DNA of 64,000 nucleotides from a bacterium (GTDB lineage Bacteria > Patescibacteriota > Minisyncoccia > UBA6257 > 2-01-FULL-56-20). The stretch spans positions 9,842-73,841 of the forward strand of contig JAKAUM010000007.1 in the NCBI GenBank assembly GCA_021827685.1, in the 5' to 3' direction. The notes beneath the pieces were generated by a model. That model had not been told where the DNA came from, ran no database searches, and worked only from the letters and a program-made list of their open reading frames with translations. Position numbers and translations under genes: made by a program. Below are positions 1,695 through 63,572 of the stretch, in pieces (the first letter of the stretch is position 1; each line of letters opens with the position of its first letter).

Positions 1695-4312
1695 GGATCA
1701 TTCCGGCCGATTCCCGCCTCATCCGGATTCGCGGGGCGGGAAACCGCGATCACCGGCGGCGCAACGCCGCCGCCGGACACCGCCGCGAGCTTGAATGCGT
1801 TTGCGAACACCATGCCGTTGAAATTATCCCAGAAGCTCCTGAAAAGCCGGTGCGCTTCCTGCCGGTATTCTACGAGCGGGTCGCGCTGGCCGTAGGCGCG
1901 AAGGCCGATGGCCTCTTGGATAGCCTCCAATTCTTCCAGATGGTTCATCCACAGCATGTCGAGGATTCCCAGAAGCTGGTTTTTTGCGGCAGGACTCTCG
2001 GCCGCGAGGGCGGCGCGCGCTTCCATTATCTTTTTCATCGCATCGGGATCGTCCGGCGCGGCGGGCGTCGGCGCATCGGCGCCAATAAGCCCTGCTTCCC
2101 CGAGGGCGCGGATCAGATCTCCGCGCGGTCCGCCTTCCGTTCCCGCCGCGCCGCCTCCTTCGCGAGCCGCGCCCGCGCCGCCCGCGGACGCGAGCAGTCC
2201 TTCATAATGCGCCGCCGCCGCCTCGACAACGGCTCGCGCGAGATCCTCCTTTGAAAGTATCTCGAGCATCTCCGACCGGCGGCGGTAGACGGCCGCGCGC
2301 TGCTTATTGAGGACGTCGTCGTATTCAAGGAGGTGTTTCCGCAAGTCGAAGTTCGCGCCTTCCACTTTCTCCTGCGCCTGCTCGACCGCCTTCGTCACGA
2401 ACTTGAACTCGATCGGCTGGTCGTCGGGGACATCGAGCCGCTCCATCATGTTTTTCAGCCGGTCGCCGCCGAAAATCCGGAGAAGGTCGTCCTCGGCGGA
2501 GAGGAAGAACTGCGTGGAGCCGGGATCGCCCTGGCGCCCGGAGCGGCCGCGGAGCTGGTTATCGATGCGCCGCGCTTCGTGGCGCTCGGTTCCGAGCACG
2601 TGCAGGCCGCCGAGCTCGCGCACTTTCGCCGCTTCCTCCGGCGACGGCGGGTTCCCGCCGAGGATGATGTCGACGCCGCGGCCAGCCACGTTCGTCGCCA
2701 CCGTCACCGCGCCGGCGCGGCCCGCTTGGGCGATGATCGCCCCTTCGCGCTCGTTATTCTTCGCATTCAGCGTCTCGTGCGGAATGCCCGCTTCCGAGAG
2801 CGCCGCGGAAAAAAGCTCGTTTTTCGCGATGGAAGTCGTACCCACCAGCACGGGCTGGCCCTTCTCCCGCCGCGCCGCGATCTCGCGCACGACGGCGTCG
2901 ATCTTCGCGCGGAAATTCTTATAAATGAGGTCGTTCAGATCGCGACGGGCGAGGTCCCGGTTCGTCGGGATGCTCACGACTTCGAGCTGGTATACCTTAT
3001 AGAACTCTTCCGCGGAGGTCTGCGCGGTTCCCGTCATGCCGGCGATCTTCCCGTACATGCGGAAATAATTCTGGATGGAAATCTTCGCGTAAGTCCGCGA
3101 CTCGTCCTTGACCATGACGTTCTCTTTCGCTTCGATTGCCTGGTGCAGGCCGCCTTGATACCGGCGGCCGACGAGGATGCGTCCCGTAAACTCGTCGACG
3201 ATCATGACCTCGCCGTTCTTCACGACATAGTCGCGGTCGCGGAAGAAAAGCGCCTTCGCCTTCAAGCTCTCTTCCATGTACCGTACGAGCCGGATGTTCT
3301 CCGGCGCATAAATGTTCCGGAGGCCGAGCGTTTTTTCCACTTTTTCGACGCCTGCGTCAGTGATGGAAACGGATTTTTTCTTCTCGTCCACCGTATAATC
3401 CTCGTCCTTTTCGAGGAGCGCCGCGATGCGGGAAAAGGTCTTATAGGCGTCGCTCGACTGCGCATCCGGCGCCGCGATGATGAGGGGCGTGCGCGCCTCG
3501 TCGATCAGGATGCTGTCCACCTCGTCAATAATCGCGTAATAATGCCCGCGCTGGACGCGGTCTTCGAGCCGATAGACGAGATTGTCGCGCAGGTAGTCAA
3601 AGCCAAATTCGTGGTTCGTGCCGTAGGTCACGTCGGCGGCATAGGCCTCGCCGCGCGCAATCGGACGGAGGAATTCCTGCTGGACAAGGAAACTCCCGGT
3701 TGTATCGCGCTCCTTGTCGAGCAGTTTCGATGCTTCCGGGTTCTGCGCGCCGGCCGCGGCGGCGGCGCCCGCGGCCGCCCCGCCCGCGGCAATCGCCGGG
3801 CCTTCCTCCGGCGCTTTATAGAGCGGGTCGTACGAGAACGCGGCGTTCGGAACAAGGCAGGCGACGCTCAGCCCGAGCGCGCGGTAGATCTGGCCCATCC
3901 AGACGGCGTCGCGGCGCGCGAGGTATTCGTTCACCGTCACCACGTGTACGCCGCGGCCCGCGAGCGCGTTCAGATAGGCGGGCGCCACGGCCGCAAGCGT
4001 CTTCCCTTCCCCCGTCATCATTTCAGCCACCGCCCCGCGGTGCATGACTATGCCGCCCATGAGCTGGACGTCGAACGGGCGCTGGCCGAGAGTCCGCTTC
4101 GCCGCCTCGCGCGCAAGCGCGAAGGCCCGCGGCATAAGGACGTCGAGCGGTTCGCCTCCCGCGGCGCGTTCCTTCAGCTTCATGCTTTCCTCGCGCAATC
4201 CTTCCGCGGAGAGGCCCGCGATCTCGGTTTCGAGGGCACTGATTTCTTTCACCCTCTCCTCAAGCTCCCCGCGCGAGCGCTTGTCGAAAAAATGTTTTAT
4301 GGGGCCGAACAT
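1577..4312 (-). CDS. secA: Preprotein translocase ATPase SecA
   Basis: 911 aa; DEAD-like motor motifs; C-terminal zinc finger CPCGSGKKWKKC. Confidence 0.95.
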   Translation of the reverse strand: MFGPIKHFFDKRSRGELEERVKEISALETEIAGLSAEGLREESMKLKERAAGGEPLDVLMPRAFALAREAAKRTLGQRPFDVQLMGGIVMHRGAVAEMMTGEGKTLAAVAPAYLNALAGRGVHVVTVNEYLARRDAVWMGQIYRALGLSVACLVPNAAFSYDPLYKAPEEGPAIAAGGAAAGAAAAAGAQNPEASKLLDKERDTTGSFLVQQEFLRPIARGEAYAADVTYGTNHEFGFDYLRDNLVYRLEDRVQRGHYYAIIDEVDSILIDEARTPLIIAAPDAQSSDAYKTFSRIAALLEKDEDYTVDEKKKSVSITDAGVEKVEKTLGLRNIYAPENIRLVRYMEESLKAKALFFRDRDYVVKNGEVMIVDEFTGRILVGRRYQGGLHQAIEAKENVMVKDESRTYAKISIQNYFRMYGKIAGMTGTAQTSAEEFYKVYQLEVVSIPTNRDLARRDLNDLIYKNFRAKIDAVVREIAARREKGQPVLVGTTSIAKNELFSAALSEAGIPHETLNAKNNEREGAIIAQAGRAGAVTVATNVAGRGVDIILGGNPPSPEEAAKVRELGGLHVLGTERHEARRIDNQLRGRSGRQGDPGSTQFFLSAEDDLLRIFGGDRLKNMMERLDVPDDQPIEFKFVTKAVEQAQEKVEGANFDLRKHLLEYDDVLNKQRAAVYRRRSEMLEILSKEDLARAVVEAAAAHYEGLLASAGGAGAAREGGGAAGTEGGPRGDLIRALGEAGLIGADAPTPAAPDDPDAMKKIMEARAALAAESPAAKNQLLGILDMLWMNHLEELEAIQEAIGLRAYGQRDPLVEYRQEAHRLFRSFWDNFNGMVFANAFKLAAVSGGGVAPPVIAVSRPANPDEAGIGRNDPCPCGSGKKWKKCGLIGTQEHQANMARGKPGAKHEVTGG

Positions 4313-4315
4313 AGT

Positions 4316-4636
4316 TCAACGCGCCGCGGCCCGGCGCGTCTTATATTTTTCTATCTCGAGGCGCAGAGTGTCGCGCGCGCGGTTGATGGCGGCGCGGGCA
4401 TCTCCGGCATATTCTTCGGCGCGAAGCACCTTGCGGGGAAGGCGTAAACTGGCTGCCGCGACGAACACGTCCCCCTTCCGGTGATGGCGCGTCGTGCGCG
4501 ATATTTCAATCCATATTTCCGCCTCTCCCGTCTCGTCAAAACGCTTGACAAACTTTGCGAGCGTCCCGAGCTTCTCTTCTATATATTTCCTGAACGAAGG
4601 AGTGAGATCGGTACCGGCCTTGATGTTGATTTTCAT
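4316..4636 (-). CDS. hpf: Ribosome hibernation promoting factor (HPF/RaiA family); start chosen at internal MKINIKAG
   Basis: MKINIKAG...FxKYIEEKL pattern of the S30AE family; the shorter start avoids overlap with the murB stop at 4659. Confidence 0.75.
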   Translation of the reverse strand: MKINIKAGTDLTPSFRKYIEEKLGTLAKFVKRFDETGEAEIWIEISRTTRHHRKGDVFVAAASLRLPRKVLRAEEYAGDARAAINRARDTLRLEIEKYKTRRAAAR

Positions 4637-16579: not shown

Positions 16580-16613
16580 GCGCAACAACTCTCGAGATTG
16601 TTGCGCTTTTTTT
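16580..16613 (+). terminator. Rho-independent terminator (GCGCAACAA-loop-TTGTTGCGC + T7)
   Basis: 9-bp perfect stem followed by TTTTTTT; sits between the convergent peptide gene and the metallopeptidase gene. Confidence 0.7.
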
Positions 16614-17424
16614 AGTTTGTTACCTCCATAAATCTTTTGGGGTCAGTTTTCATTAACTCTTCCCAAGATAGATTTTTGTTTCTATTTATAAACTCCTTGA
16701 CTAACCAGTAGCCCGTAGAATATCCGTTCCATTTTTTATATTTACCATTTCCAAATAAAAATTCTTTTATCACTTTTTGTTCTTTTGATTCTAGCGTGTT
16801 TTTATCTAAATCTTTTAGAATCTGAAAAGCTTCCTCTTTTTCTAATGCCCCCGCCCACTTTGTAGTTTTAGGATCAAAATATTGTTCCCTAAAATTTTCC
16901 GCCAATCCCTCCAGCAATATTTCATCTAAAAGTGTATAGCTATTAAAGTCATCGTAATGGTGATAGTAATAAATTGTATGATTTAGCTCGTGGGCGACAG
17001 TATTTTTGATAGATTCTTCCGAATATTCTTCTAAATTTATAAACAAATGAAAAACGCAACTATAAACAGCAACCGCCATTACGCCATCAAAAACTTTATC
17101 GTCTTTAGTCGTGAGATATGGATGGACAAAGATAAAATTCCTCGTCGGGACAGATAATTTCTCGTCGCACTTCTCGACAGTTTCCGAAATGACTTTTTCT
17201 ATCTCTGATTTTTGATCTTCGGAAATTTCCTTATACTGTTCAATATTCCCATTTCCAATATGATCTAGTAAGCCCTGCCTTAATAGTTCGATATCAGCAT
17301 AACCAGAATAATCAATACTACCTTGGTTTTTCATCAAGAAGATAATTGATTCAACAATCTCAGTTTTGTCTTTGAATTCTCCGTTTGGAAAATAGAATTC
17401 AACTCGTGATAAATCTTTACTCAT
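16612..17424 (-). CDS. Predicted Zn-dependent metallopeptidase, DUF2268-like (HExxH)
   Basis: VAHELNHTIYY contains an HExxH motif; very AT-rich gene (~30-35% GC) with Lys/Glu/Asn-rich codon usage unlike the host. Confidence 0.65.
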   Translation of the reverse strand: MSKDLSRVEFYFPNGEFKDKTEIVESIIFLMKNQGSIDYSGYADIELLRQGLLDHIGNGNIEQYKEISEDQKSEIEKVISETVEKCDEKLSVPTRNFIFVHPYLTTKDDKVFDGVMAVAVYSCVFHLFINLEEYSEESIKNTVAHELNHTIYYYHHYDDFNSYTLLDEILLEGLAENFREQYFDPKTTKWAGALEKEEAFQILKDLDKNTLESKEQKVIKEFLFGNGKYKKWNGYSTGYWLVKEFINRNKNLSWEELMKTDPKRFMEVTN

Positions 17425-17880: not shown

Positions 17881-17954
17881 GGTGCCCCCGGAGGGAATTG
17901 AACCCCCATCGTATCCTTAGGACGGATCCGCTCTATCCGTTGAGCTACGAGGGC
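17881..17954 (-). tRNA. tRNA-Arg (anticodon CCU)
   Basis: Manual fold: GCCCTCG acceptor, GCTC/GAGC D-stem, anticodon loop GTCCTAA, T-arm GGGGG-TTCAATT-CCCTC; G32 unusual. Confidence 0.65.
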
Positions 17955-17997
17955 TTTTGGGATACACTATACGCAATCGGATGCAGGACGGCAATAT

Positions 17998-18068
17998 GGG
18001 CCTATAGTATAGTGGTAGAACGCCTCCATGGCATGGAGGAGGTCCGGGTTCGATTCCCGGTAGGTCCA
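17998..18068 (+). tRNA. tRNA-Ala (anticodon GGC) with G3:U70
   Basis: Manual fold: GGGCCTA/TAGGTCC acceptor with G3-U70, anticodon stem CCTCC/GGAGG, loop ATGGCAT, T-arm CCGGG-TTCGATT-CCCGG. Confidence 0.75.
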
Positions 18069-18082
18069 CGCGGAGTGATTCC

Positions 18083-18931
18083 TCACCTGAGCAAGAATAC
18101 GCCGAACGCGGCGACGAGGGCCGCAGCGACCTTTTTCCAAAGGCGGTCACGCTCGTTAAGAAAAACGGCGCCAAGCATCACCGTAAGCACGATCACCGAT
18201 TGATTGATGGGAGCGAGCCGCGATATGGCGCCGCCTCGTTGGTATGCGAGATACAATAGTATCGCCGACGCTGAATACGTAACCGCAAGGAATATCATTT
18301 TCACGACGGTCGCCGGGCGAGCCAGGGGTTTTAATTCGAAGACAACCCGTGGACGAATAAGAAAGATAAAAATAGCGGGGAGGAGAAAAGCGGCGGTGGT
18401 ATATGAAAGCGCATCCGCGTATCGCAGAATGAAGGCATCGTTGGCAAATGCCGTGCCATAGCAGAACGCAGCGCCGAGCGCGTACAATCCCTCCCTGCCG
18501 AAGCGCAATGCATTTCTTCCGTAGACGACGATGACGACGCTTACGAAGATGAGAACGATTCCTACGATATTCAACGCGGTGAGCGATTCCCCGAAAAACA
18601 ACGTGGCAACCGCAATAGTCCAGAGGCCGCTCGATGACTTAAGCACCGTGACTTCCGAAACCTCCGCGCGCTGTAAGGCCTTAAGAAGCAATAGCGTTCC
18701 CGTGCCGTAAAGCACGCCGGTGAGGATAAAATTCGGGATGAGCCGCGGCATCGGCGGGAGAGAAAATCCATGCAAGCCCGCCGCAACCCCGACAAGCGCG
18801 CCGCAGGCCAATTGGAAAACGAGCGAATAGCTTATCGTACTGCTCTCTGCGTCTTCCATCAGGGCGCGCTGGAACAAGTTCGCAATGGCAAGCAGTACCA
18901 CGCTTATAATGGCGAGCGAATACCAGTTCAT
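18083..18931 (-). CDS. EamA/DMT-family transporter
   Basis: ~10 TM helices, two EamA-like halves; GC intermediate (~53%). Confidence 0.8.
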   Translation of the reverse strand: MNWYSLAIISVVLLAIANLFQRALMEDAESSTISYSLVFQLACGALVGVAAGLHGFSLPPMPRLIPNFILTGVLYGTGTLLLLKALQRAEVSEVTVLKSSSGLWTIAVATLFFGESLTALNIVGIVLIFVSVVIVVYGRNALRFGREGLYALGAAFCYGTAFANDAFILRYADALSYTTAAFLLPAIFIFLIRPRVVFELKPLARPATVVKMIFLAVTYSASAILLYLAYQRGGAISRLAPINQSVIVLTVMLGAVFLNERDRLWKKVAAALVAAFGVFLLR

Positions 18932-19141
18932 GGACTTATTTTAGCAAAGCGGCGATCTTTTAGGCCCTTGCGCTTTTATATAGCCCGGCGGGGGTGGCCG
19001 AACCGCGCAAATCCCCCGCCCCGCCCCGCCCCGCCTGTTCCGCCTTGTGCCGACGCCCGGGTTCGCTTACTATTTTGATGAAATCCGCGGCTCGTGGCGC
19101 GTGATCCCCCTGCGAGCGGTGGCGGCATCCATATTTAGAGA

Positions 19142-19228
19142 GGAGGCGTGCGTGAGCGGTTGAAACGGACGGTCTTGAAAACCGTTATGCCAGAAATGGC
19201 ATCGAAGGTTCGAATCCTTCCGCCTCCG
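19142..19228 (+). tRNA. tRNA-Ser (anticodon UGA), type II
   Basis: Manual fold: GGAGGCG/CGCCTCC acceptor, 3-bp D-stem CGT/ACG, anticodon loop CTTGAAA, long variable arm TATGCCAGAAATGGCATC, T-arm GAAGG-TTCGAAT-CCTTC. Confidence 0.75.
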
Positions 19229-19306
19229 CCCGTTAGGGCATCGGTTCGAGAGACCTTCCGGCCTCGAGTTTTGCTATCTTTTTGAAATGCAGTTCAGGCG
19301 ATGAAA

Positions 19307-19366: not shown

Positions 19367-20407
19367 ATGGACTTTGCACGTTTAGACAAACTACGCCCCG
19401 GCAACAAAATTGCCGTCCTTTCCCCTTCCTTCGCTGCGCCGGGGAAATGGCCCTGGGTATATGAGCTCGGCTTGAAGCGCTTGCGTGAGGTATTTGGACT
19501 TGAACCGGTGGAATTCCCCACCACTAAAAAGATCGGCGCTTCAAAAGAGGAACGATCAAAAGATTTGATTGATGCGTTCGAGAATAAAGAGGTTAAGGCG
19601 GTCATCGCGTCCCTCGGCGGCGACGATCAGATAACGTATATCAAAAATCTTCCCGTCGAGCCGTTCGTCAATAATCCCAAGCCATTTTTTGGGTTCAGCG
19701 ACAATACACACTTTGAGAATTTCCTCTGGCTGCATGGCATCCCCTCCTACTACGGCGGATCGCTCTTTACCGAGTTCGCGATGCAAAAACGCATGGATCC
19801 CTACACGGTGGAATATCTTAAGCACGCCCTGTTCGATAAAGACGAATTCGAACTGAAGCCAAGTGATATGTATAACGACATGGGACTCGACTGGAATGAT
19901 CCGGCAAATCTCGACAAAGAGCGCGTCTATGAAAAGAATGAGGGATGGCTCTGGGACGGCACGCAAAATGCCGAAGGCACTACATGGGGCGGGTGCGTAG
20001 AATCCATCGACGAGCTCCTGCGGCACGGGGTTCAAATCCCGTCGCTTCAGGATTTCGAAAATGTCGTGCTTTTTGCCGAAACCTCCGAAGAAATTCCCTC
20101 AGCCGATTACGTGCGCCGCGTCTATCGCGCCCTCGGCGAGCGAGGAATCTTGCAGCGCGTGAAAGCTGTGCTGACCGGCCGCCCGAAAGCGTGGGAATTT
20201 AGTAACGAACGCAACGCGGAAGAGAAACACGCCCACCGGGAAGCGCAAAGAGCGGCAATCACCAAAACCGTAAGGCAGTACAATTCTTCTATCCCGATCA
20301 TCCACAATCTCGACATCGGACACACCGCACCGCAGATTCCTTTGCCGAATGGAAGACGAATCCGAATCGACGCGAAAGAAAAGAAAATATTCGTCGATTT
20401 CTCATGA
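19367..20407 (+). CDS. S66-family LD-carboxypeptidase (MccF/LdcA-like)
   Basis: GFSDNT (catalytic-Ser block), LFAETSEE (Glu block), IGHTAPQIPLPNG (His block); perfect TATAAT 7 nt upstream of the ATG. Confidence 0.8.
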   Translation: MDFARLDKLRPGNKIAVLSPSFAAPGKWPWVYELGLKRLREVFGLEPVEFPTTKKIGASKEERSKDLIDAFENKEVKAVIASLGGDDQITYIKNLPVEPFVNNPKPFFGFSDNTHFENFLWLHGIPSYYGGSLFTEFAMQKRMDPYTVEYLKHALFDKDEFELKPSDMYNDMGLDWNDPANLDKERVYEKNEGWLWDGTQNAEGTTWGGCVESIDELLRHGVQIPSLQDFENVVLFAETSEEIPSADYVRRVYRALGERGILQRVKAVLTGRPKAWEFSNERNAEEKHAHREAQRAAITKTVRQYNSSIPIIHNLDIGHTAPQIPLPNGRRIRIDAKEKKIFVDFS

Positions 20408-21525
20408 GGCATCGTGCGGCGGTATTTGTGCTCGATAACGGCAAAGTTCTCCTCTTCCATCGCTTCAAGAATGGGGATGAATATTATGCCGTTCCGGGCG
20501 GCGGTGTTGAGGCCAACGAAACTCCGGAAGAGGCCGCAATAAGAGAGCTAAAAGAAGAAACCAATTTGGATGTACTGCTCGGAGAAAAAATCGGAGAGCT
20601 CGAAGAAGATAGCAACCGACAATACTTCTATATTGCGAAGTCTTGGGCCGGCACACCGACACTCGGCGGCCCGGAAGCGGAACGCAATTCACCAAACAAC
20701 CAGTATATCCTCGAATGGATACCGATCAAGAAACTGGAAGGTATAAATTTGAGAACTGATATAGCGGCCATTCTTCTGAAACACGCAAACACGACCCAAT
20801 CCGACATCTTCTCCCGCATCAAAGCGCTCAACCTCCCCTTCGGCGAATATGTCGTCGTTTCAAGCGGCACCCTTGAGGCGCTGGGCATCCGTCCGGCGCG
20901 CGATCTGGATATCGCCGCAACGTCAAAGCTTTTCGAGAAACTCCGCGCGGAAGGCGGATGGACCGAAGAAGAGCGGTACGGGAAGATCTTCCTCAGCAAG
21001 CCCGGCATCGATATCATCCGCCAGCTTTCATGGGATACTTACCCCACCACTACCGAAGAAGCCATTAGATCGGCGCTCGTCATCGAAGGCATCCCATTTA
21101 TGAATCTTGATGAGTTGAAGCGATTCAAACGAGCGCTTGGCCGCGAAAAGGATTTTACAGATATCAAACTTATCGAAAAATATGAAGAAAATGCCGCACT
21201 GCGGTTCCTCCATAAAACCGTAACCGCAACTATCGATCGCCCGCTCGGGAGCGAGCATCCAAAGTGGAATTTTGAATATCCAATCAACTACGGATCTATC
21301 CAAAATACGAAAAGCAGCGATGGCGAGGAGGTTGATGCCTATGTGTTGGGCATAAATGAGCCGCTCAAGGAATTCACGGGAAAATGTATCGCGATCATCC
21401 ATCGCCTGGATGATGATGACGACAAGCTGGTGCTCGCGCCCGAAGGCATGGATTTTAGCGACGACGACATCCGGACAACCACCCATTTCCAAGAGCAATA
21501 CTTTACATCGGTGATTGTGAGATAA
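20404..21525 (+). CDS. Three-domain fusion: Nudix hydrolase + polβ-type nucleotidyltransferase + family-I inorganic pyrophosphatase-like domain
   Basis: Nudix box (GGVEANETPEEAAIRELKEETNL); middle VVVSSGTLEALGIRPARDLDIA (GS...DxD NTase signature); C-terminal YPINYGSIQNT...DGEEVDAYVLG...DDDDDKLVLAPEG resembles soluble PPase; 4-nt overlap with upstream gene. Confidence 0.65.
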   Translation: MRHRAAVFVLDNGKVLLFHRFKNGDEYYAVPGGGVEANETPEEAAIRELKEETNLDVLLGEKIGELEEDSNRQYFYIAKSWAGTPTLGGPEAERNSPNNQYILEWIPIKKLEGINLRTDIAAILLKHANTTQSDIFSRIKALNLPFGEYVVVSSGTLEALGIRPARDLDIAATSKLFEKLRAEGGWTEEERYGKIFLSKPGIDIIRQLSWDTYPTTTEEAIRSALVIEGIPFMNLDELKRFKRALGREKDFTDIKLIEKYEENAALRFLHKTVTATIDRPLGSEHPKWNFEYPINYGSIQNTKSSDGEEVDAYVLGINEPLKEFTGKCIAIIHRLDDDDDKLVLAPEGMDFSDDDIRTTTHFQEQYFTSVIVR

Positions 21526-21532
21526 TAAGAAT

Positions 21533-22165
21533 ATGAAGCTTCTCCTCACTTCCTGCGGATGGGAATACAATCCGAAGATCGCGAAAGAATTCCTGCGCCT
21601 GATCAGTAAGAAACCCGCTCAAATAAAAATCTTTCTGGTCACTACCGCGGACAAGAAAAACAAAGATTGGAAATGGGTGAAGCGGCAAGTGAGGATGATC
21701 GCGAGAATCGGCATCGCCGAGAAGAATATCGAGATTTTCAGTTTGGATAGAAAAATAAGGAAAGATGAACTTGCATACATCGACGCCGTCTATGTATGCG
21801 GAGGTAACACGTTCCTCTATCTGCACGGCATCAGAAAGACAGGATTGGATAAGGTGATAGCCAAATTCACCAAAAAGGGCGGGCTGTATTATGGCATAAG
21901 CGCGGGCAGCATTCTTGCAGGACCAGACATCGCGTTCATCACTCCCCTGGATGACCCGAGCGTAGTCCGAGCGCTTCCAACGGTGAAGGTGATACACACA
22001 AAAGGACTTTGCCTGACCAATGTAGGCGTCGCCCCACACTATAACAACAAGGAGTACGTAGGCGTCATTAACGAATCCCGCGCGAAATCAAAATTTCCCA
22101 TCGTGCCGCTTACCGATACGCAGGCGCTCGCGATCGTCGGGCGGAAAAAGAAAATCATTGAATAA
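21533..22165 (+). CDS. Peptidase E / S51 family (alpha-aspartyl dipeptidase or cyanophycinase-like)
   Basis: VCGGNTFLYL and GISAGSIL (Ser nucleophile) motifs. Confidence 0.75.
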   Translation: MKLLLTSCGWEYNPKIAKEFLRLISKKPAQIKIFLVTTADKKNKDWKWVKRQVRMIARIGIAEKNIEIFSLDRKIRKDELAYIDAVYVCGGNTFLYLHGIRKTGLDKVIAKFTKKGGLYYGISAGSILAGPDIAFITPLDDPSVVRALPTVKVIHTKGLCLTNVGVAPHYNNKEYVGVINESRAKSKFPIVPLTDTQALAIVGRKKKIIE

Positions 22166-22168
22166 CCT

Positions 22169-22666
22169 ATGATCATCTTTCTCAACGGCTCCATTAATTC
22201 CGGCAAGAGTACCGCGGCAAAACTCCTTGCCGAGAAGATCTCAAACTCGGCAATCGTGGAGATCGATGCTCTGCGCGACATGATTGCGTGGATGCAGATC
22301 GATCAGGCGGTTCCCATAAATCTTGAAAATGCCGTAGCGGTCATCCGCATTTTCACAAAGCACGGCATCTCCTGCATCGTCCCTTATCCTCTCTCCGAAA
22401 AGAACCACGCCTATATGACCGATGCGCTTGCGGGCATCGGGACGCCGATCCATTATTTTACTCTCGCGCCATCCATTGAGACGGCACTCTCCGACCGGGG
22501 TGGCAGGAAACTCGACGGTGTGGAACGGGATCGGATCAAGCGTCACTATGCAATCGGCATCCATACACCATCGTTCGGCACGACCATCGACAATTCAAAG
22601 CGCACACCACAAGAGACAGTGGAAATAATTTTGGCTAGTATCGATCTTGAGCGTCATAACATTTAA
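22169..22666 (+). CDS. Small P-loop NTPase, predicted small-molecule/nucleoside kinase (AAA_33/CPT-like)
   Basis: Walker A GSINSGKST at the N-terminus; 165 aa. Confidence 0.6.
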   Translation: MIIFLNGSINSGKSTAAKLLAEKISNSAIVEIDALRDMIAWMQIDQAVPINLENAVAVIRIFTKHGISCIVPYPLSEKNHAYMTDALAGIGTPIHYFTLAPSIETALSDRGGRKLDGVERDRIKRHYAIGIHTPSFGTTIDNSKRTPQETVEIILASIDLERHNI

Positions 22667-22671
22667 AATGT

Positions 22672-23298
22672 ATGAAAACGATGTGTATCCTCTATGTCGT
22701 CAGGCATGGCGAAACCGATGCGAACGCGAAAGGCCTCATTCAGGGCCAATCAGATTTTTCTCTTACAAGCATCGGGGAGAGCCAAGCGACCAATCTCGCA
22801 AAGAAATTTAAACATATCCATTTCGCCGCCGTATTCTCATCGGACCTAATACGTGCACGGAGGACCGCCGAGATAATTACACTTGAAAAGAAGCTCGCCG
22901 TTAATACCAGTCATCTTCTTCGTGAACGCAATTTCGGAAAGTACGAGGGGAAGCCGCAAACGCTATTTCGAGAAGAGAATGAGGAATTTCTGAGACAACT
23001 TACGGCATTGCCCTATGAGGAGGGGAAAAAATTGAAAGCCGCGGAAGATATCGAAAACGATGACGAATTAACGGCTCGGTTCATCACATTCTTGCGCGAG
23101 ATTGCCGTAACGTATCAGGGAAAGACCGTTTTGGTTGTTACGCACGCTGGTGTGATGCGTGCGTTTTTGAGACATATGAATCACGATTCGTCGAGCGGCT
23201 TTATCGAAAACGCGGGATACTTCAGGCTCCGTTCGGACGGAATCAACTTTTTCGTCGATGAGACGTCTGGCATAGGCGAGTCTCCTCGATCGCGCTGA
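22672..23298 (+). CDS. Histidine phosphatase superfamily protein (phosphoglycerate-mutase-like)
   Basis: VVRHGETDANAKG (RHGE motif); SSDLIRARRTAE. Confidence 0.8.
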   Translation: MKTMCILYVVRHGETDANAKGLIQGQSDFSLTSIGESQATNLAKKFKHIHFAAVFSSDLIRARRTAEIITLEKKLAVNTSHLLRERNFGKYEGKPQTLFREENEEFLRQLTALPYEEGKKLKAAEDIENDDELTARFITFLREIAVTYQGKTVLVVTHAGVMRAFLRHMNHDSSSGFIENAGYFRLRSDGINFFVDETSGIGESPRSR

Positions 23299-23503
23299 TC
23301 GTCCCGATACAATTTGTTTTAGGCACACACATATGGCGGACTAGGTTTTGAATTCGGCAAGGGCTTCGTTTGGCGTCTTGCCGCCCAATCCGCATGTGTA
23401 GGAATCAAGATGAAGAGAAATACTGGCGCGAAACGAGCTGCGATCAACAATGGAGAAACCTATCGAGAAACCGAGATACCTCAAATTTCGCCCGTAAGCT
23501 ATA

Positions 23504-23893
23504 ATGACCGCAACAAAAATCGTCATAACTCATGCAAGCGCGCTGCCTTGGAAAGGCGAATTTTATGCGGCGGTTCGAGCATCTCGGCTGTACGAAAATA
23601 ATGATGTTTTCTTGCCGCAAGAGAAAAACAAACCGGAGCAGATTACCAAAGAGCGAATCGAACATTGCGACCTCATGATTGCTGAAGTTTCTTGCCCCTC
23701 AACGGGGCAAGAAATAGAACTTGGATGGGCGGATGCCTATCATCGCCCGATTATTTGCGTTCATCAGGAAAAAAACGCTGTTTCGAACTCGCTACGATTT
23801 ACCACGAGCGAATTCATCAGCTATAAGGATTCCGAAAACCTGATTGCACAGCTTGAGCGGCTGATCCTAGAGAAATATCAACCCGCGGCATAG
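23504..23893 (+). CDS. Nucleoside 2-deoxyribosyltransferase-like (NDT/YtoQ fold) protein
   Basis: CDLMIAEVSCPSTGQEIELGWADAYHRPII, the NDT-like ExG + conserved acidic pattern. Confidence 0.55.
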   Translation: MTATKIVITHASALPWKGEFYAAVRASRLYENNDVFLPQEKNKPEQITKERIEHCDLMIAEVSCPSTGQEIELGWADAYHRPIICVHQEKNAVSNSLRFTTSEFISYKDSENLIAQLERLILEKYQPAA

Positions 23894-57859: not shown

Positions 57860-58023
57860 CTGCCTGATTGCTCCCCGATTTGGACGAGTTTCGAACCAGA
57901 GATTGGGAACAGATTGTACGTGGTTTAGCTTATCTCGATGTGCCGCGGCTGCGGCTTGCAGTGGCGGCATAAGGGGGGGTATATTGGCGACAAAGGTCGA
58001 TTACAAGGCCTATTACATACATC

Positions 58024-58629
58024 ATGAAAAAAATACTACTGGGTGGAGCGGTGGCTGCTGGAAGCCTCCTTGCGTTTTCGTTGGTCGCTCTTGCTGCGCC
58101 ATCGGTCCACACGAATTTCGGCAAGACGCTCAATGCCAGCACCTGCAACACGAGTGGTGCCCCGATCGTAAATGTCTCGCTCAAGGTGATCAACGATTCC
58201 GATTCCGGTTTCGGTGGCAACGCATGGGCAAACGACGATTATGTAAAGACGATCCAGGTGTGGCCGCAAGCAGATGGAACGAACTGCGCTATCGTGAAAT
58301 ACGAAGGGCAGTTCGTTACCTATGATGGATTGAGTCCGAGCGGCAACTCGACGGTAGCGGCTGGAGTTAGGGGAGCGTTTGAGGGCGGCTATCAGGCCAC
58401 CTTCGATGGAACACTTACTCCCACGCTGCCGACCCACGGAAACCTTGGCACGTATGATTATGCGTGCGATGGAACGTTCACATGCAACACGTTCGATTGG
58501 GTGAGCGCCTACTTTACTGGCAATACATTCTTCAACCAGCCGTATTGGGCGTGGGACTACCATGCCGGTCACAATGGGAGCTGGGTGAACGCAAGCACTG
58601 GTAGTTCTGGCGACATCACCGGGAGCTAA
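58024..58629 (+). CDS. Secreted hypothetical protein with signal peptide
   Basis: MKKILLGGAVAAGSLLAFSLVALAA signal; Gly/Asn/Thr-rich, 6 Cys. Confidence 0.5.
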   Translation: MKKILLGGAVAAGSLLAFSLVALAAPSVHTNFGKTLNASTCNTSGAPIVNVSLKVINDSDSGFGGNAWANDDYVKTIQVWPQADGTNCAIVKYEGQFVTYDGLSPSGNSTVAAGVRGAFEGGYQATFDGTLTPTLPTHGNLGTYDYACDGTFTCNTFDWVSAYFTGNTFFNQPYWAWDYHAGHNGSWVNASTGSSGDITGS

Positions 58630-58655
58630 ACGAGTGAGTGCGGAACGATAAGCGT

Positions 58656-58682
58656 AAAAACAGCCCAAGTGGGCTGTTTTTA
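58656..58682 (+). terminator. Bidirectional rho-independent terminator (A5-CAGCCCA-AGT-GGGCTG-T5)
   Basis: Perfect stem flanked by an A-run and a T-run, 27 nt after the secreted-protein stop. Confidence 0.7.
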
Positions 58683-58787
58683 CTGGACAACCCTGCGTGA
58701 GGACTCGGTCTGGGGCGTACGATTCAGCCCGTAAAAGCTGGGCAAAACCAGTTCGTTGATTTTTCATGGGGAATCCGTATTATATAA

Positions 58788-59027
58788 GTGATGGACAAGA
58801 CCTCCTCAAAAAGCGGCGCGATGAGCAAAATCGCGCCAAAAGAAGTTGTAGACAAGAACGCTCCGGCCCTGAAGGCCTACGATGCGTATAAGAGAGCGGC
58901 CGACATCATAGAACAAGCCGACATTGCCTCCGGCAAGCGCGTCGTTTTCAAATCGAGCACTGGCTCTGCGATCAACTTCCAGATAGACCTGCATGGCACT
59001 TACTCAACCACAGCGCAAGAGATTTAG
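58788..59027 (+). CDS. Hypothetical 79-aa protein
   Basis: ORF with moderate GC; first gene of the element; overlaps the next gene start. Confidence 0.3.
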   Translation: MMDKTSSKSGAMSKIAPKEVVDKNAPALKAYDAYKRAADIIEQADIASGKRVVFKSSTGSAINFQIDLHGTYSTTAQEI

Positions 59028-60015
59028 CGCGACACAGGATTGGCAGAACTTCCTCCAAGCAAAACAGGGAGTGGTTAACGGCTCGGAGCTATTTGAGTTA
59101 CGCAAAGCATGTTACGCCGAGATAGAGGCGCTGCGAAAGCGGCCTCTTTTGGTTTACGCAACGAAGTTCTTGGAGGGCGTGCCCCCATTTGCACCTAATC
59201 AAATCGATCTTACCGATGTCGAAGGATTCACCGATCTGGTGAACTCGACAGCTGACGGTTCAGTAGACGTGCTTCTCCATAGCCCCGGTGGGCGTCCCGA
59301 TGCGACCGAGCGGATTGTTGACATACTCCGCGGAAAGTTCAAAGAGGTTCATTTTCTCGTTCCCCATTCGGCATATTCGGCCGCAACGATGCTCGCATTA
59401 TCCGGCAATAGCATTGTTCTCCATCCGAGCGCGACGCTTGGGCCGATTGATCCTCAGGTTGGTGTTCCGACGAAAGAAGGGCTGGTCAGGTTCGTCCCCG
59501 CGAAGTCCATCAGAAATGGATTCGAAAAGGCGAAAGCTGAAATAAAGAAAGAAGGGCCGGAGGCGCTGCCAGCTTACATCCCATTGATTGAACAATACTC
59601 GCTCGACCTCTTTGAGATGTGTGAGGATTCTGAAAAGCTCTCGAAGGAGCTGGTATCAACTTGGCTTCAGCGGTATATGTTTGAAGGCGATGGGAGCGCT
59701 GGGGAGAAAATCAAAAACGCCGTCGCGTATTTCTCGGAATACGATACGCACAAGCTGCACTCCCGGCCGCTCTCAGCGAACAAAATCTCCGGCCTCAATC
59801 TCAAAATCGAAGTCGCAAGCGGCATACTCAAAGACCTCCTGTGGGAGTCGTTTATTCTCCTCAATGGGTTCTTCAACGTAAGTTCGTTTGTGAAGCTATA
59901 CGAAAATACTCGTGGTGTGACATGGGGAAAACAGTTGCAGATTATGATGGGGCCTCAACCTCAAGTCCAGCCGCAGCCACAACCACGGCCGCGGCCACAG
60001 CCTCCGCAAAAATAG
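58993..60015 (+). CDS. ClpP/crotonase-fold serine protease, S49/SDH family, with Pro/Gln-rich C-terminal tail
   Basis: VDVLLHSPGG motif typical of ClpP/SppA-like (SDH) proteases; PQPQ repeat tail. Confidence 0.55.
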   Translation: MALTQPQRKRFSATQDWQNFLQAKQGVVNGSELFELRKACYAEIEALRKRPLLVYATKFLEGVPPFAPNQIDLTDVEGFTDLVNSTADGSVDVLLHSPGGRPDATERIVDILRGKFKEVHFLVPHSAYSAATMLALSGNSIVLHPSATLGPIDPQVGVPTKEGLVRFVPAKSIRNGFEKAKAEIKKEGPEALPAYIPLIEQYSLDLFEMCEDSEKLSKELVSTWLQRYMFEGDGSAGEKIKNAVAYFSEYDTHKLHSRPLSANKISGLNLKIEVASGILKDLLWESFILLNGFFNVSSFVKLYENTRGVTWGKQLQIMMGPQPQVQPQPQPRPRPQPPQK

Positions 60016-60096
60016 CAAGAGATAGCATGTCTTCGGCAGCGCTCAATCGGCGCTGCTTTTTGACGTGCGGGCAAATGTAAACTAAAGTAAAGCGTA

Positions 60097-61170
60097 ATGG
60101 AAGACATTGCGGCCACTTTGCGGGACGATTATGAGGCCTTCGTCAACCAGCCGGAACCGTTCGGCTTCTTTTCCGGCCTCTCGGATTATATGGGCTACGC
60201 GCTGGAGAACCCGACGCTGAAAGCGATTGTGGACGAAGCCATGAAGCCGAAGCAGGCATTGTTTGATGAGTATGACCGGCTTGAACAGCAAACGATGAGG
60301 GAGATGAAAGTGGCCGAAAAGAAAATCCGCAAGATCATTGCGGATAATAAAATCGACCCGGCTTCAATAACGATGGTTTTCTCGACGGGGCCGAATATGC
60401 GGCAGGAGCAAAACCTGCTTGAACGGCTCGAGGTGTTCGACAAAAGTCAGCCTGGCCACGGCAATTCAAAGTGGCATACGTTCGGGCAATACCTTTTCGA
60501 TATTGCCGTAAACCTCGCGCGACAGGGCTACGGGGAGCAGCTCAAGGAGTTTACCGTTCCAGCAAGTGAATGGGGACACCATCACGAAGATCCTTATCCC
60601 GAAGACAATACAAGCGGACTGGTTTTGGCTGGCAACAGCCTCGGCAACTTCGTGTTTTCAAAAACCGAGCCGCTTGTTCTCAAGCAGGATGCCCACATTG
60701 CCAAAGAGCGTGAGTATGGCGCAATGTGGAGCGTTTTCGATCAACTCGTGAAACTCCGCGAAACGGTTGTGGCTCGGAGCGGTGGAATAAGCAAATACGA
60801 TTTTCTCAACGATTACAACCGGCGGCACCCGGCAAGGAATAAAGCCGAAGCTAACGACCTCTGGGAGGTCGGCCTGGCATTTAACGACTTATCCGACATG
60901 ACGATGACCGGGGGGATCATAGAATGTGGATCGGTTCCACTCCCGGACGACAGTTACCGTTACCACCGTTCTTACGGGTCAACGACTTCAAGAGTCGTGC
61001 GGCACGCGCACATAGGCATCTTCTCAAAGAACTCGGGAAGCGGCAGACAAAAATGGCCCCGGCTGGTGGTTTTTCAGCAACCAGCGACGAGCTTTGTTTC
61101 AACGGCAAAAAGATCATTGTATCGCGGTCGAAAAACACAAGGCCTTATTTCCTGCTTAAAATTCTGTTGA
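60097..61170 (+). CDS. Hypothetical protein; C-terminal ~80 aa look like out-of-frame read-through (possible frameshift)
   Basis: First ~280 aa protein-like; the last segment is Arg-rich junk, while the overlapping +1 frame encodes a winged-helix domain. Confidence 0.4.
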   Translation: MEDIAATLRDDYEAFVNQPEPFGFFSGLSDYMGYALENPTLKAIVDEAMKPKQALFDEYDRLEQQTMREMKVAEKKIRKIIADNKIDPASITMVFSTGPNMRQEQNLLERLEVFDKSQPGHGNSKWHTFGQYLFDIAVNLARQGYGEQLKEFTVPASEWGHHHEDPYPEDNTSGLVLAGNSLGNFVFSKTEPLVLKQDAHIAKEREYGAMWSVFDQLVKLRETVVARSGGISKYDFLNDYNRRHPARNKAEANDLWEVGLAFNDLSDMTMTGGIIECGSVPLPDDSYRYHRSYGSTTSRVVRHAHIGIFSKNSGSGRQKWPRLVVFQQPATSFVSTAKRSLYRGRKTQGLISCLKFC

Positions 61171-61385
61171 GCAATCCACAGAAGACTTGGCATTACGACG
61201 AGGTCTGGTGGGAGTTATTCGAGACGCACTATCCCAAAAATCCGACCGAGGCAGACGCGAAGAAAATCTACAATGCCGCCTATGATCTGAACCAGCTCAT
61301 CGCGCAACAAACGACGATAAACGATTTCGTGGATGTGACGATGACTACGTTGAGGGTGAACGAGAAGTATCTTCCGCTCGGGTAG
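61053..61385 (+). CDS. OmpR/CadC-type winged-helix DNA-binding domain protein (either standalone or the frameshifted C-terminus of the upstream ORF)
   Basis: KIIVSRSKNTRPYFLLKILLSNPQKTWHYDEVWWELF resembles the trans_reg_C wHTH. Confidence 0.4.
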   Translation: MAPAGGFSATSDELCFNGKKIIVSRSKNTRPYFLLKILLSNPQKTWHYDEVWWELFETHYPKNPTEADAKKIYNAAYDLNQLIAQQTTINDFVDVTMTTLRVNEKYLPLG

Positions 61386-61449
61386 CAGAGATTCAGCAGA
61401 GTTCTGCTGACTGCGGTAGGCATATCCTGATGAAAAATCAGGATCTTTT

Positions 61450-61689
61450 ATGCCTGCCAAAAGAGTTAAAAAGAAAAAGGATATTCCGGTCAGAGGCCTA
61501 TTCGAGGAAACTCGCTCGGATGATGCTACCAAGACGTTACCCGCAAAGCCGACCGTAGACGAGATTTTTAGCGACCCTGCGGCCCGCCGTAATATCGTCG
61601 GTCTCTACGAACTGCTGTACGAAATCGACCGGCGCATTAATCCGCAGTTCTACGGCTTGCCTGAGAGAAAAGATGACGCGGTAAAATAA
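61450..61689 (+). CDS. Hypothetical 79-aa basic protein
   Basis: ORF immediately upstream of the Rep gene. Confidence 0.3.
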   Translation: MPAKRVKKKKDIPVRGLFEETRSDDATKTLPAKPTVDEIFSDPAARRNIVGLYELLYEIDRRINPQFYGLPERKDDAVK

Positions 61690-61694
61690 AACCA

Positions 61695-62846: not shown

Positions 62847-62866
62847 AGTATCATAAAGCTAATACC

Positions 62867-63049: not shown

Positions 63050-63051
63050 CC

Positions 63052-63570: not shown

Positions 63571-63572
63571 CT

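Follow-up and report, generated by a model that had tools for sequence, protein, structure and literature searches.

The gene at positions 20404..21525 (+) of the stretch of DNA analyzed here (64,000 nucleotides; the window) raises the question of why a Nudix domain, a nucleotidyltransferase, and a pyrophosphatase should be joined in a single polypeptide, and what such a protein would do for its host. The window comes from the genome of an uncultured member of the Patescibacteria, which are without most nucleotide biosynthesis and depend on imported precursors; to our knowledge, how they police the imported nucleotide pool is poorly understood. The open reading frame is complete and encodes 373 amino acids, in which three confidently modeled domains, N, M, and P, follow one another in that order. 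A sequence-only reading of this DNA had proposed the same three domains (Nudix, nucleotidyltransferase, and pyrophosphatase) in one 373-aa ORF, and all of these assignments are correct and the ORF bounds exact. The possibility that the ORF is an artefact of a frameshift or a misjoined gene pair was checked and is rejected, as the identical protein is present on six contigs, among which are one from an NCBI MAG and one from a Logan assembly made independently, where the neighbors are also the same, and nine full-length 373-aa relatives share 79 to 82% identity; the fusion is thus real and conserved. The AlphaFold model of the full-length protein has a mean pLDDT of 91.7 and a pTM of 0.67, with short, confidently modeled junctions between the domains and an inter-domain geometry that is only moderately defined.

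The N module (aa 1 to 127; 20404..20784, +) is a MutT/RppH-like Nudix hydrolase domain. It matches Pfam PF00293 over aa 1 to 111 (E 4.2e-18; 66.1 bits against a gathering cut-off of 21.1), and its Nudix box (aa 33 to 55, GGVEANETPEEAAIRELKEETNL; 20500..20568, +), located with the regular expression GX5EX7REUXEEX[GN]U, is intact, with R47, E48, E51, and E52 present and N replacing the last G. The top PDB sequence matches are 8-oxo-dGTPase/MutT proteins, which like RppH enzymes liberate PPi; scores against the NCBIfam MutT equivalog models fall well short of their cut-offs (NF008044, 36 versus 148 bits; TIGR00586, 31.8 versus 97.9 bits), and by sequence N is MutT-like at the superfamily level only. 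As a domain that is MutT-like in both sequence and fold, it is predicted to convert an NTP to NMP and PPi. NadM-Nudix (NMN adenylyltransferase/ADP-ribose pyrophosphatase) and mycobacterial MutT1 (Nudix plus histidine phosphatase) are weak sequence or structure matches of N, with scores far under the model cut-offs. They too carry a nucleotidyltransferase or a phosphatase together with a Nudix domain on one chain, analogous to the linkage of N, M, and a histidine phosphatase (H) described below, but neither has a pyrophosphatase module, and NadM is a Rossmann-type, HIGH-motif nucleotidyltransferase and does not have the Pol-beta fold.

An alpha/beta/alpha Nudix fold is supported by Foldseek (E 5e-10, TMt about 0.75 to BdRppH, 3ees), with many MutT structures next. 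That the top matches are to an RNA pyrophosphohydrolase favors a reading in which the protein processes or repairs RNA ends, with N an RppH-like 5'-triphosphate pyrophosphohydrolase, M a MenT/CCA-like 3'-terminal nucleotidyltransferase, P removing PPi, and the products of two nearby genes, a kinase-like protein (K) and H, acting as the 5'-kinase and 3'-phosphatase of end healing. We regard this as very improbable: all of the modules, as well as the M family at large, are acidic (pI 4.7 to 5.2), and N-M-P has no recognizable RNA-binding domain.

The M module (aa 128 to 262; 20785..21189, +) is a Pol-beta-fold nucleotidyltransferase of an undescribed family, which contains 2,273 clusters at 50% identity, is about 135 aa long, and is without a Pfam model. 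No match to M was found in Pfam or NCBIfam, and there are only sub-threshold traces among its relatives (DUF6036, E 0.077; NTP_transf_2, E 0.005). A profile built from the M alignment matched nothing among PDB sequences even at E ≤ 10, so a fold comparison was needed, and M was modeled alone because the 50 Foldseek matches listed for the full-length protein are all Nudix. PF22327 was considered as the middle domain and rejected, since re-scanning of M-N proteins placed that match on the Nudix part.

M has the nucleotidyltransferase fold of the Pol-beta superfamily and the associated hG[GS] and [DE]h[DE]h motifs, with a family consensus of VVGSG...DIDI and D167-L-D169-I in the query. The signature that had been read as GS...DLD holds in its second half, with the two aspartates of motif II (D167-L-D169; 20902..20910, +) present in 60/60 relatives; in the first half the query reads S153-S154-G155 (20860..20868, +), and G-S-G appears only as the family consensus (G155 in 60/60, S154 in 54/60). 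A C-terminal helix carries a further motif, K242-x4-R247-x-K249-D250-x2-D253 (21127..21162, +), in which R247 and K249 are each conserved in at least 58 of the 60 relatives. The residues invariant across all 60 are G155, R163, D167, D169, K242, D250, and D253, and candidates for a third carboxylate are E188 (55/60, on the strand at 187 to 191) and D203, which is variable (mostly D or E, some T or N). From these residues and the predicted fold, M is probably a catalytically intact small Pol-beta nucleotidyltransferase of the ANT(2'')/Lnu(A)/TM1012/MenT clade.

Within that clade, M is structurally closest to TM1012 (PDB 2ewr, a putative Thermotoga maritima nucleotidyltransferase; 13% identity) and MenT1, ahead of the resistance enzymes, at identities of 12 to 17%. 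As TM1012 is without known function, this match identifies a fold clade and not a function. The C-terminal motif of M resembles what we take to be the motif IV consensus of the DUF1814/AbiEii/MenT nucleotidyltransferases, a resemblance that also favors a role at RNA ends. Compared with these toxins, for which four motifs have been described (PMC7450476), M is about half the size, acidic, has no cognate antitoxin, and lies in metabolic gene blocks rather than toxin-antitoxin loci; PF08843 does not match the N-M-P protein, and neither AbiEi nor MenA is found among the flanking S66, S51, kinase-like, and histidine phosphatase genes. The lack of an antitoxin-like partner of the kind seen in MenAT and AbiE argues against an RNA-end function as well.

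By analogy with ANT(2'') and Lnu(A), antibiotic nucleotidylylation by M is possible. On that reading, M would be an O-nucleotidylyltransferase inactivating an aminoglycoside, lincosamide, or nucleoside-type antibiotic, P would pull the reaction, and together with genes for a TmrD/CPT-like kinase, APH, GNAT, and MccF-like S66 proteins the locus would form a resistance island. The acidity of the M family (median pI about 5.0) is consistent with this, as small-molecule antibiotic nucleotidyltransferases are acidic too. This was the main suggestion of the sequence-only reading, which named a signaling nucleotide as the alternative; both stand as conjecture, and we consider the antibiotic version unlikely. 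M is only 12 to 15% identical to ANT(2'')-Ia and Lnu(A), matches no resistance-gene model, and resembles TM1012 and the tRNA-modifying MenT as much as or more than it does these enzymes, which we do not know to occur as fusions to Nudix or pyrophosphatase modules. Moreover, by general Nudix chemistry, a Nudix domain would not be expected to cleave the phosphodiester of an O-nucleotidylylated antibiotic, which would leave N without a role on such drugs, yet N is the most frequent partner of M.

The P module (aa 263 to 373; 21190..21522, +) is a hairpin-less, C-terminally truncated family-I pyrophosphatase core. PF00719 matches aa 289 to 365 (E 1.5e-6; 28.6 bits against a cut-off of 23.5), with only positions 31 to 110 of the 153 in the profile aligned, and phmmer recovers solved pyrophosphatases (e.g., 3d53 at E 3e-4). 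The strings on which the pyrophosphatase assignment had been based are present (YPINYG, 292 to 297; DGEEVD, 306 to 311; DDDDDK, 336 to 341). As a reference we used the E. coli Ppa sequence, with all 14 active-site residues at their textbook numbers. The complete canonical set (E20, K29, E31, R43, Y51, Y55, D65, D67, D70, D97, D102, K104, Y141, and K142) is not found in P, which has D278 (for E20), K287, Y292, Y296, D306, D311, D336, D339, and K341, carries E308 in place of D67, and lacks E31 and R43 of the hairpin and Y141 and K142 of the C-terminal region. Across 95 P sequences, the equivalents of E20 (as D), Y51, Y55, D65, and D70 are present in all 95, those of D102 and K104 in 94, and that of K29 in 90, and E. 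coli residues ∼31 to 49, the hairpin between strands 1 and 2, are deleted in every member. In the predicted model the strands run 272 to 279, 295 to 299, 310 to 314, 323 to 334, and 341 to 345, followed by a helix, a pattern consistent with a hairpin-less OB core. The proposal of a family-I pyrophosphatase at the C terminus therefore stands as regards the core, and has to be amended in that the enzyme is incomplete. P keeps the metal-binding acidic cluster and is predicted to be a minimal pyrophosphatase core; given the four missing residues and the substitution at D67, hydrolysis of PPi is no more than plausible. A P module that does hydrolyze PPi would be the smallest soluble pyrophosphatase known; otherwise, its annotation in genomes as 'inorganic pyrophosphatase' is misleading.

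Domains of this type have been described before, as the hairpin-less InPase domains of phage polyvalent proteins (Iyer, Burroughs, Anand, de Souza, and Aravind, 2017, J Bacteriol; PMC5512222). P shares with them a type-I pyrophosphatase core, predicted to be an OB fold, without a hairpin between strands 1 and 2, and a phage portal protein in the PDB (9b41_L, aa 641 to 687) aligns to the same segment of P; the Pfam InPase model PF18823 scores below its gathering threshold on P (18.5 versus 26.8 bits, E 0.0019), while PF00719 passes. The genomic associations are also alike, in that P is fused or adjacent to Nudix domains and lies beside a TmrD-like P-loop protein, with GNATs frequent neighbors, and the 2017 paper briefly mentions Nudix-InPase fusions and links of InPase to TmrB-like P-loop proteins and GNATs. 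The Pol-beta nucleotidyltransferase partner, the N-M-P protein, the links to histidine phosphatase, APH, and S51, and the Patescibacteria/DPANN range are not described there. Those authors suggested a nucleotide-like phosphoanhydride, in place of free PPi, as a possible substrate of InPase, and the same may be true of P.

The genes around N-M-P bear on which of these activities belong together. The fusion gene lies in a compositionally foreign block (19367..23893, +) beside the genes for tRNA-Arg, tRNA-Ala, and tRNA-Ser (17881-19230), whose members have a GC content of 0.47 to 0.52 and GC3 of 0.49 to 0.61, compared with 0.58 to 0.64 and 0.73 to 0.79 for the flanking genes. By composition the block looks laterally acquired, as would be expected of a resistance island too. 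It opens with a gene for an S66 LD-carboxypeptidase/MccF-family peptidase (346 aa; 19367..20407, +; PF02016 and PF17676), the stop codon of which overlaps the ATG of N-M-P (ATGA); the two are translationally coupled. Downstream are an S51 (PepE-like) peptidase (210 aa; 21533..22165, +; PF03575, E 1.8e-26), K (165 aa; 22169..22666, +), H (208 aa; 22672..23298, +; PF00300, His_Phos_1, E 1e-43), and, last in the block, a nucleoside 2-deoxyribosyltransferase-like gene (129 aa; 23504..23893, +; GC 0.469) with a PF05014 match just below the gathering score (E 4.6e-6; 27.2 versus 28.8 bits). The S66 and S51 genes hold the same positions in three related loci (L001-L003), and S51 is fused to P in another (L143). 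A toxin-antitoxin or phage-defense reading of the locus was set aside: the sole PADLOC match is to a generic Nudix model (PDC-S07), with none in the neighboring genes, and a viral contig collection contains no relatives of M. The PADLOC result also speaks against a role at RNA ends.

K is a small P-loop kinase-like protein with weak AAA_33, AAA_18, and CPT matches. Its best PDB match, over the full length, is 2vli, deposited as an 'antibiotic resistance protein', and it has a weak Gar/GrdA match; both would suit drug inactivation, but the 2vli match is weak (E 0.037). The AAA_33 similarity would fit RNA-end healing, as this Pfam family presumably includes polynucleotide kinases; against this, the neighboring genes belong to nucleotide metabolism and not to RNA repair, such as a ligase or Hen1. 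The idea that M is a non-orthologous cofactor adenylyltransferase (for NMN, FMN, or phosphopantetheine) and K its matching kinase was discarded, as just a weak CoaE/cytidylate-kinase P-loop similarity lies behind it. K shares 63% identity with the N-terminal half of a K-P fusion (P0078) and 78% with the gene following N-P at another locus (L006), and H shares 79% with the C-terminal half of an M-H fusion (P0052). Judged by these identities, K and H of the window are orthologous to domains that other loci carry joined to P and M, and the functional unit of the fusion gene also includes the adjacent kinase-like and histidine phosphatase genes.

The same modules recur in many arrangements. We found N-M-P (nine clusters), M-N-P, N-M, M-P, N-P, M-N, P-M, P-N-N, K-P, M-H, M-APH, and S51-P fusions, and unfused neighbors as M|N-P with a 4-bp overlap (L006) and M-P|N (L010). 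Nudix genes are the commonest neighbors of P (11/144) and, with P-loop kinases, of M. M is fused or adjacent to N, P, K, H, or S51 at 24 of 80 loci, or at 11 of the 34 with adequate flanks, and about two-thirds of the latter have no N, P, K, or H neighbor. These surroundings are also rich in genes for nucleotide house-cleaning and salvage, among them HIT, Ham1, dCMP deaminase, PNP, NDK, guanylate kinase, and NrdD, in line with a role in nucleotide processing. The fusion had been called unusual; it is real, but less singular than that implies, because Nudix-InPase fusions and an InPase-TmrB link were already noted in 2017 (PMC5512222) and N, M, and P shuffle freely. N-M-P is a new arrangement of known enzyme kinds, all three folds of which were already known.

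Some of these partners are what would be expected of drug resistance, namely, the fusions of M to APH kinases (P0074 and P0086), to a glyoxalase/bleomycin-resistance domain (P0300), and to a shikimate-kinase-like kinase (P0307), and the APH, Acetyltransf_3, HIT, and S66/MccF neighbors; however, each of these resistance-like families is a broad superfamily in which housekeeping members are numerous. ASCH domains, found among the fusion partners and neighbors, could likewise be cited for a role in RNA-end processing.

A different explanation is that the fusion is incidental, the very compact genomes of Patescibacteria having joined and shuffled small accessory genes so that the three modules work independently on unrelated substrates. 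Since the genes of the block overlap or lie a few bases apart, such fusions would readily arise wherever a stop codon is lost; in addition, the three-domain form is rare (the nine clusters and permuted forms), and the partners of P are diverse, including kinase, peptidase, ASCH, and PhzF domains. We find this distinctly unlikely. The same partners recur in N-M-P, M-N-P, P-M, M-P, N-M, and M-N, and their recurrence in different orders needs independent rearrangements, not stop-codon loss alone; the linkage spans many lineages, and for N-P extends to non-CPR taxa; and the junctions in the model are short and confident. Because related genomes carry the same modules joined or side by side in a variety of orders, N, M, and P very probably cooperate.

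The explanation that we favor, and to which we would give roughly an even chance, is that the protein is a trifunctional nucleotide-processing enzyme in which the PPi-releasing modules N and M are tethered to a PPi-removing P, within a block that sanitizes, salvages, or detoxifies nucleotides. PPi released by N, and by M in transferring NMP from an NTP to an acceptor (NTP + acceptor -> NMP-acceptor + PPi), would be hydrolyzed in place by the tethered P, which would relieve product inhibition and make both reactions irreversible. N, M, P, K (as a TmrD/CPT-like P-loop kinase), H, and S51 would constitute a shuffling set of modules that move jointly, in Patescibacteria, within an accessory block subject to lateral transfer, most probably acting on nucleotides or nucleotide-like compounds in hosts that use imported precursors. 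In the ATP sulfurylase-PPase fusions of stramenopiles and haptophytes, the pyrophosphatase is presumably full-length. There, too, a nucleotidyl-transferring, PPi-releasing enzyme is joined to a pyrophosphatase that pulls an unfavorable equilibrium (Patron et al. 2008; PMC2275785), although ATP sulfurylase is unrelated in fold to Pol-beta nucleotidyltransferases, the organisms are eukaryotes, and a Nudix domain is absent. With this precedent, and the discussion of InPase as a further one (PMC5512222), a pyrophosphatase pulling PPi-releasing chemistry forward, as the sequence-only reading had proposed, would be the most economical reading by analogy. A point against it is the occurrence of P in fusions whose other partner releases no PPi (P-loop kinase, S51 peptidase, ASCH, and PhzF); P therefore does more than drain PPi from the domain to which it is joined. 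Furthermore, should the acceptor of M be a phosphate, its product could be undone by N in a futile cycle.

A bolder version, doubtful in our view, is that N, M, P, K, and H with S51 and S66 constitute an undescribed, laterally mobile pathway of several enzymes in Patescibacteria and other microbes with reduced genomes. The pathway would inactivate or recycle a class of toxic compounds resembling nucleotides, for instance nucleoside antibiotics, aminoacyl-nucleotide antibiotics, or salvaged nucleotides that are damaged; M would then found a new family of small-molecule nucleotidyltransferases, and the hairpin-less P would act on a nucleotide-linked phosphoanhydride and not on free PPi. The locus links five or six small enzymes through repeated independent fusions, which makes them a concrete and testable set, and it offers a handle on two sizeable uncharacterized families, M and the mini-pyrophosphatase P (about 113 aa). 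With the folds known and the Nudix-InPase linkage on record, we see the finding as useful rather than startling. A scan of species-representative genomes, keyed on P motifs only and so giving the distribution of P and not of N-M-P, has no N-M-P protein among its best 80 loci, and places P in at least 563 genomes, with hosts that range from CPR and DPANN to Clostridia of the gut.

The ORF at 20404..21525 (+) starts with ATG and encodes 373 aa in both the ORF listing and the raw sequence, and its start codon and the upstream gene's stop codon share the sequence ATGA. The sequence-only reading had described a single polypeptide, and this holds, as do the strings it quoted (YPINYG at aa 292-297, DGEEVD at 306-311, and DDDDDK at 336-341). 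A frameshift or assembly artifact can be set aside: the 373-aa protein is identical on six contigs, among which are the NCBI MAG contig DAHVPJ010000001.1 (GCA_027318325.1) and one of an independent Logan assembly that has the same neighbors, and over their full lengths nine further 373-aa proteins, recovered from different samples, are 79-82% identical to it. AlphaFold predicts the whole 373-aa chain with a mean pLDDT of 91.7 and no low-confidence linker, and this confident model, together with the independent copies and full-length relatives, shows that the fusion is not an artifact. We are highly confident of the identities of its Nudix (N), nucleotidyltransferase (M), and mini-pyrophosphatase (P) domains; all three look catalytically competent, and their types of chemistry are known.

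The N module (aa 1-127) matches Pfam NUDIX on aa 1-111 (E 4.2e-18) and has an intact Nudix box at aa 33-55. Its closest solved proteins are of the 8-oxo-dGTPase/MutT type by sequence, and the RNA pyrophosphohydrolase BdRppH and MutT proteins by structure (TMt ~0.75). These matches, and scores far under the cut-off for every NCBIfam equivalog, point to a small MutT-like Nudix enzyme. The M module (aa 128-262) is a Pol-beta nucleotidyltransferase; no Pfam or NCBIfam model matched these ~135 residues, and a search of PDB sequences with the M profile gave no match. Querying with M only retrieves mostly free-standing proteins of ~135 aa, annotated as hypothetical and without a Pfam domain, from Patescibacteria such as Lloydbacteria and Paceibacterota. 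At the 50% identity level, an exhaustive HMM search recovered 2,273 representatives for E <= 1e-3 and 1,003 for E <= 1e-10; M is thus a sizeable family without a Pfam model. In a 60-sequence alignment, G155, R163, D167, D169, K242, D250, and D253 (protein numbering) are invariant, within a G-S-G...DxD pattern and a C-terminal helix, K-x4-R-x-KD-x2-D. The C-terminal motif resembles what we take to be the 'motif IV' consensus of DUF1814/AbiEii/MenT enzymes. Four DUF1814 motifs have been described (PMC7450476). A giant 3540-aa protein (P0247) with no Pfam match has three stretches that match the M profile (best E 2e-44).

An RppH-like N and a MenT/CCA-like M, with end-healing by the downstream P-loop kinase-like protein (K) and histidine phosphatase (H), could constitute an RNA-end processing system, but every module is acidic (the M family has a median pI of ~5.0), RNA-binding domains and antitoxins are absent, and the gene context is metabolic, so we regard this as very improbable. 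A toxin-antitoxin or phage-defense role is likewise not supported, because PADLOC gave only a generic Nudix match and a search of the viral contig collection found no relatives of M.

The P module (aa 263-373) is predicted to be a hairpin-less family-I pyrophosphatase core. The Pfam Pyrophosphatase model matches aa 289-365 (E 1.5e-6; 28.6 bits versus a gathering score of 23.5), spanning only profile positions 31-110 of 153. We compared 95 family members with E. coli Ppa by alignment, using a reference sequence in which 14/14 canonical residues fall at their textbook numbers. Strand 1 is kept (E20 corresponds to D278 in 95/95 and K29 to K287 in 90/95), as are Y51, Y55, D65, and D70 (95/95) and D102 and K104 (94); Glu replaces D67 in 93/95, and both the beta-hairpin bearing E31 and R43 and the C-terminal region bearing Y141 and K142 are missing. 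With these features, P is the domain type for which Iyer et al. 2017 (PMC5512222) gave the description 'InPase lacking the beta-hairpin'. With the metal-binding acidic cluster intact, catalysis is likely; specificity for PPi is not assured, because P lacks several of the residues by which true PPases bind phosphate. A match to aa 641-687 of a phage portal protein in PDB (9b41_L) agrees with the InPase identity. That protein is gp19, the P-aligned segment includes the DG[DE]EVD metal site, and it offers an experimental structure of the hairpin-less type, usable as a template. P occurs in at least 563 species-representative genomes, mostly as free-standing proteins of 111-125 aa (as at loci L013-L089), in Patescibacteria, DPANN archaea, gut Clostridia and Bacilli, Proteobacteria MAGs, and Chloroflexota. 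JGI labels many P-containing proteins 'inorganic pyrophosphatase' despite the absence of four canonical active-site residues.

The most likely rationale for the fusion is that a MutT-type step by N (NTP to NMP and PPi) and a Pol-beta step by M (NTP and acceptor to NMP-acceptor and PPi) would share PPi as a product, and that its destruction by the tethered P core would relieve product inhibition and keep either reaction from running backward. A pull of this kind has a documented precedent in ATP sulfurylase-PPase fusions (PMC2275785), and PPi removal is one of two readings that Iyer et al. (PMC5512222) give for InPase domains. However, the four canonical residues named above are missing from P, and some of its fusion partners are enzymes that do not liberate PPi; we consider the case for such a PPi sink evenly balanced. 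As a physiological role we favor most, though with lower confidence, the system may sanitize, salvage, or detoxify nucleotides or compounds resembling them in precursor-importing organisms, and K and H would add phosphorylation and dephosphorylation steps.

Placing every homologue on the 373-aa query shows that N, M, and P behave as mobile cassettes. The order N-M-P is present in nine clusters and M-N-P in P0010; two-module forms include N-M (P0011), M-P (~13 clusters), M-N (~20 clusters), P-M (P0076), and many N-P proteins (239 and 282 aa), and a P-N-N form was also found. M is further fused to a His phosphatase (P0052), APH kinases (P0074, P0086), a shikimate-kinase-like domain (P0307), and glyoxalase/Ble (P0300), and P occurs in P-loop kinase-P (P0078), P-ASCH (P0103), and P-PhzF-AAA_33 (P0119) proteins. 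Elsewhere the modules are adjacent: at L006 the start of an N-P gene shares 4 bp with a 138-aa M gene, and at L010 an M-P gene is directly followed by an N-containing gene. Among 80 M-bearing metagenome contigs, M is linked (fused, or on the same strand no more than 150 bp away) in 24, to N in 15, P in 9, K in 4, H in 2, and S51 peptidases in 2; where at least 700 bp flank each side, 11 of 34 are linked. The remaining ~2/3 of well-flanked M loci have other neighbors, which counts against the proposed system. N, M, P, K, and H show strong and repeated genomic linkage, and an incidental fusion in compact genomes seems decidedly unlikely, since the same partners recur in different orders across lineages. 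At L143 a 333-aa S51-P fusion (2852-3850, +) lies directly upstream of an M-N fusion (3859-4509, +), so the peptidase type encoded after N-M-P in the window is itself joined to a mini-PPase elsewhere, a pairing with no obvious mechanistic rationale. NUDIX is the commonest Pfam family among immediate neighbors of P genes (11/144), followed by HAD phosphatases and GNATs. Next to M genes, the most frequent families are NUDIX (8/128) and small P-loop kinases (AAA_18, 8; AAA_33, 5; CPT, 4), with His_Phos_1, MazG-like PRA-PH, ASCH, and Acetyltransf_3 also present; wider contexts contain HIT, Ham1, dCMP deaminase, purine nucleoside phosphorylase, NDK, guanylate kinase, further Nudix genes, APH kinases, and NrdD. 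The theme is nucleotide metabolism and house-cleaning.

Some of these associations could instead indicate an island for nucleotidylylation of antibiotics or xenobiotics: the M fold is similar to ANT(2'')/Lnu(A) and its pI is acidic, M is fused to APH and glyoxalase/Ble domains, K best matches a TmrD-like protein (2vli, E 0.037) with a weak Gar/GrdA match, and APH, GNAT, HIT, and MccF-family genes are neighbors. However, the M structure is no closer to ANT(2'')/Lnu(A) than to TM1012 or MenT1, no resistance model matched, and Nudix, the commonest partner of M, would by its general chemistry have no role against O-nucleotidylylated drugs; we therefore think such an island unlikely. Three enzyme classes are known to confer resistance to microcin-C-type aminoacyl-nucleotide antibiotics: S66/MccF-family peptidases, HIT hydrolases, and RimL/MccE-type Acetyltransf_3 GNATs. 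All of them recur around N/M/P genes in different genomes (19367-20407 in the window; L003, L004, and L006), which could be a coincidence of broad families.

Each of the three folds is already known, and a single paragraph of Iyer et al. 2017 (PMC5512222) mentions both a Nudix-InPase fusion and InPase-TmrB linkage; our literature search for such a fusion found nothing more specific. We found no description of the Pol-beta partner lacking a Pfam model, the three-domain protein and its permuted forms, the Rosetta-stone network joining P-loop kinase, His phosphatase, APH, and S51 peptidase, or the concentration of these modules in Patescibacteria accessory blocks. N-M-P therefore combines known kinds in a new domain architecture and linkage, no surprise to a comparative genomicist and a good entry point for characterizing two sizeable unknown families.

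Both downstream genes of the window belong to the fusion network: K (22169-22666, 165 aa) shares 63% identity with the kinase part of the P0078 fusion and 78% with the gene after N-P at L006, and H (22672-23298) shares 79% with the phosphatase part of the P0052 fusion. Relatives at L001-L003 keep the gene order S66 peptidase, N-M-P, S51 peptidase, K. The block at 19367-23893 has GC of 0.47-0.52 and GC3 of 0.49-0.61, compared with 0.58-0.64 and 0.73-0.79 in flanking housekeeping genes, lies directly downstream of tRNA-Arg, tRNA-Ala, and tRNA-Ser genes, and resembles the relatives' loci in composition (GC ~0.47-0.49), which makes lateral acquisition of this accessory block probable. Its last gene (23504-23893, +) encodes a 129-aa nucleoside 2-deoxyribosyltransferase-like protein (PF05014, 27.2 bits, just below the cut-off of 28.8); this fold includes nucleotide N-glycosidases, and such a function would fit a nucleotide-degrading pathway. 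The stretch at 17881-19230, with tRNA Arg-cct (-), Ala-ggc (+), and Ser-tga (+) and an EamA transporter gene, sits between a GC-0.33 gene and the low-GC block and is a plausible integration hotspot. The GC-0.33 gene (16612-17424, -), just upstream of the tRNA cluster, encodes a DUF2268 predicted Zn-protease, is far more deviant from the region mean (~0.60) than the block, and was probably acquired separately and recently. GC also drops (to 0.49-0.53) in a second stretch at the window end (58000-64000), with GC3 of 0.57-0.67 for the ORFs at 58993-60015, 60097-61170, and 61695-62846.
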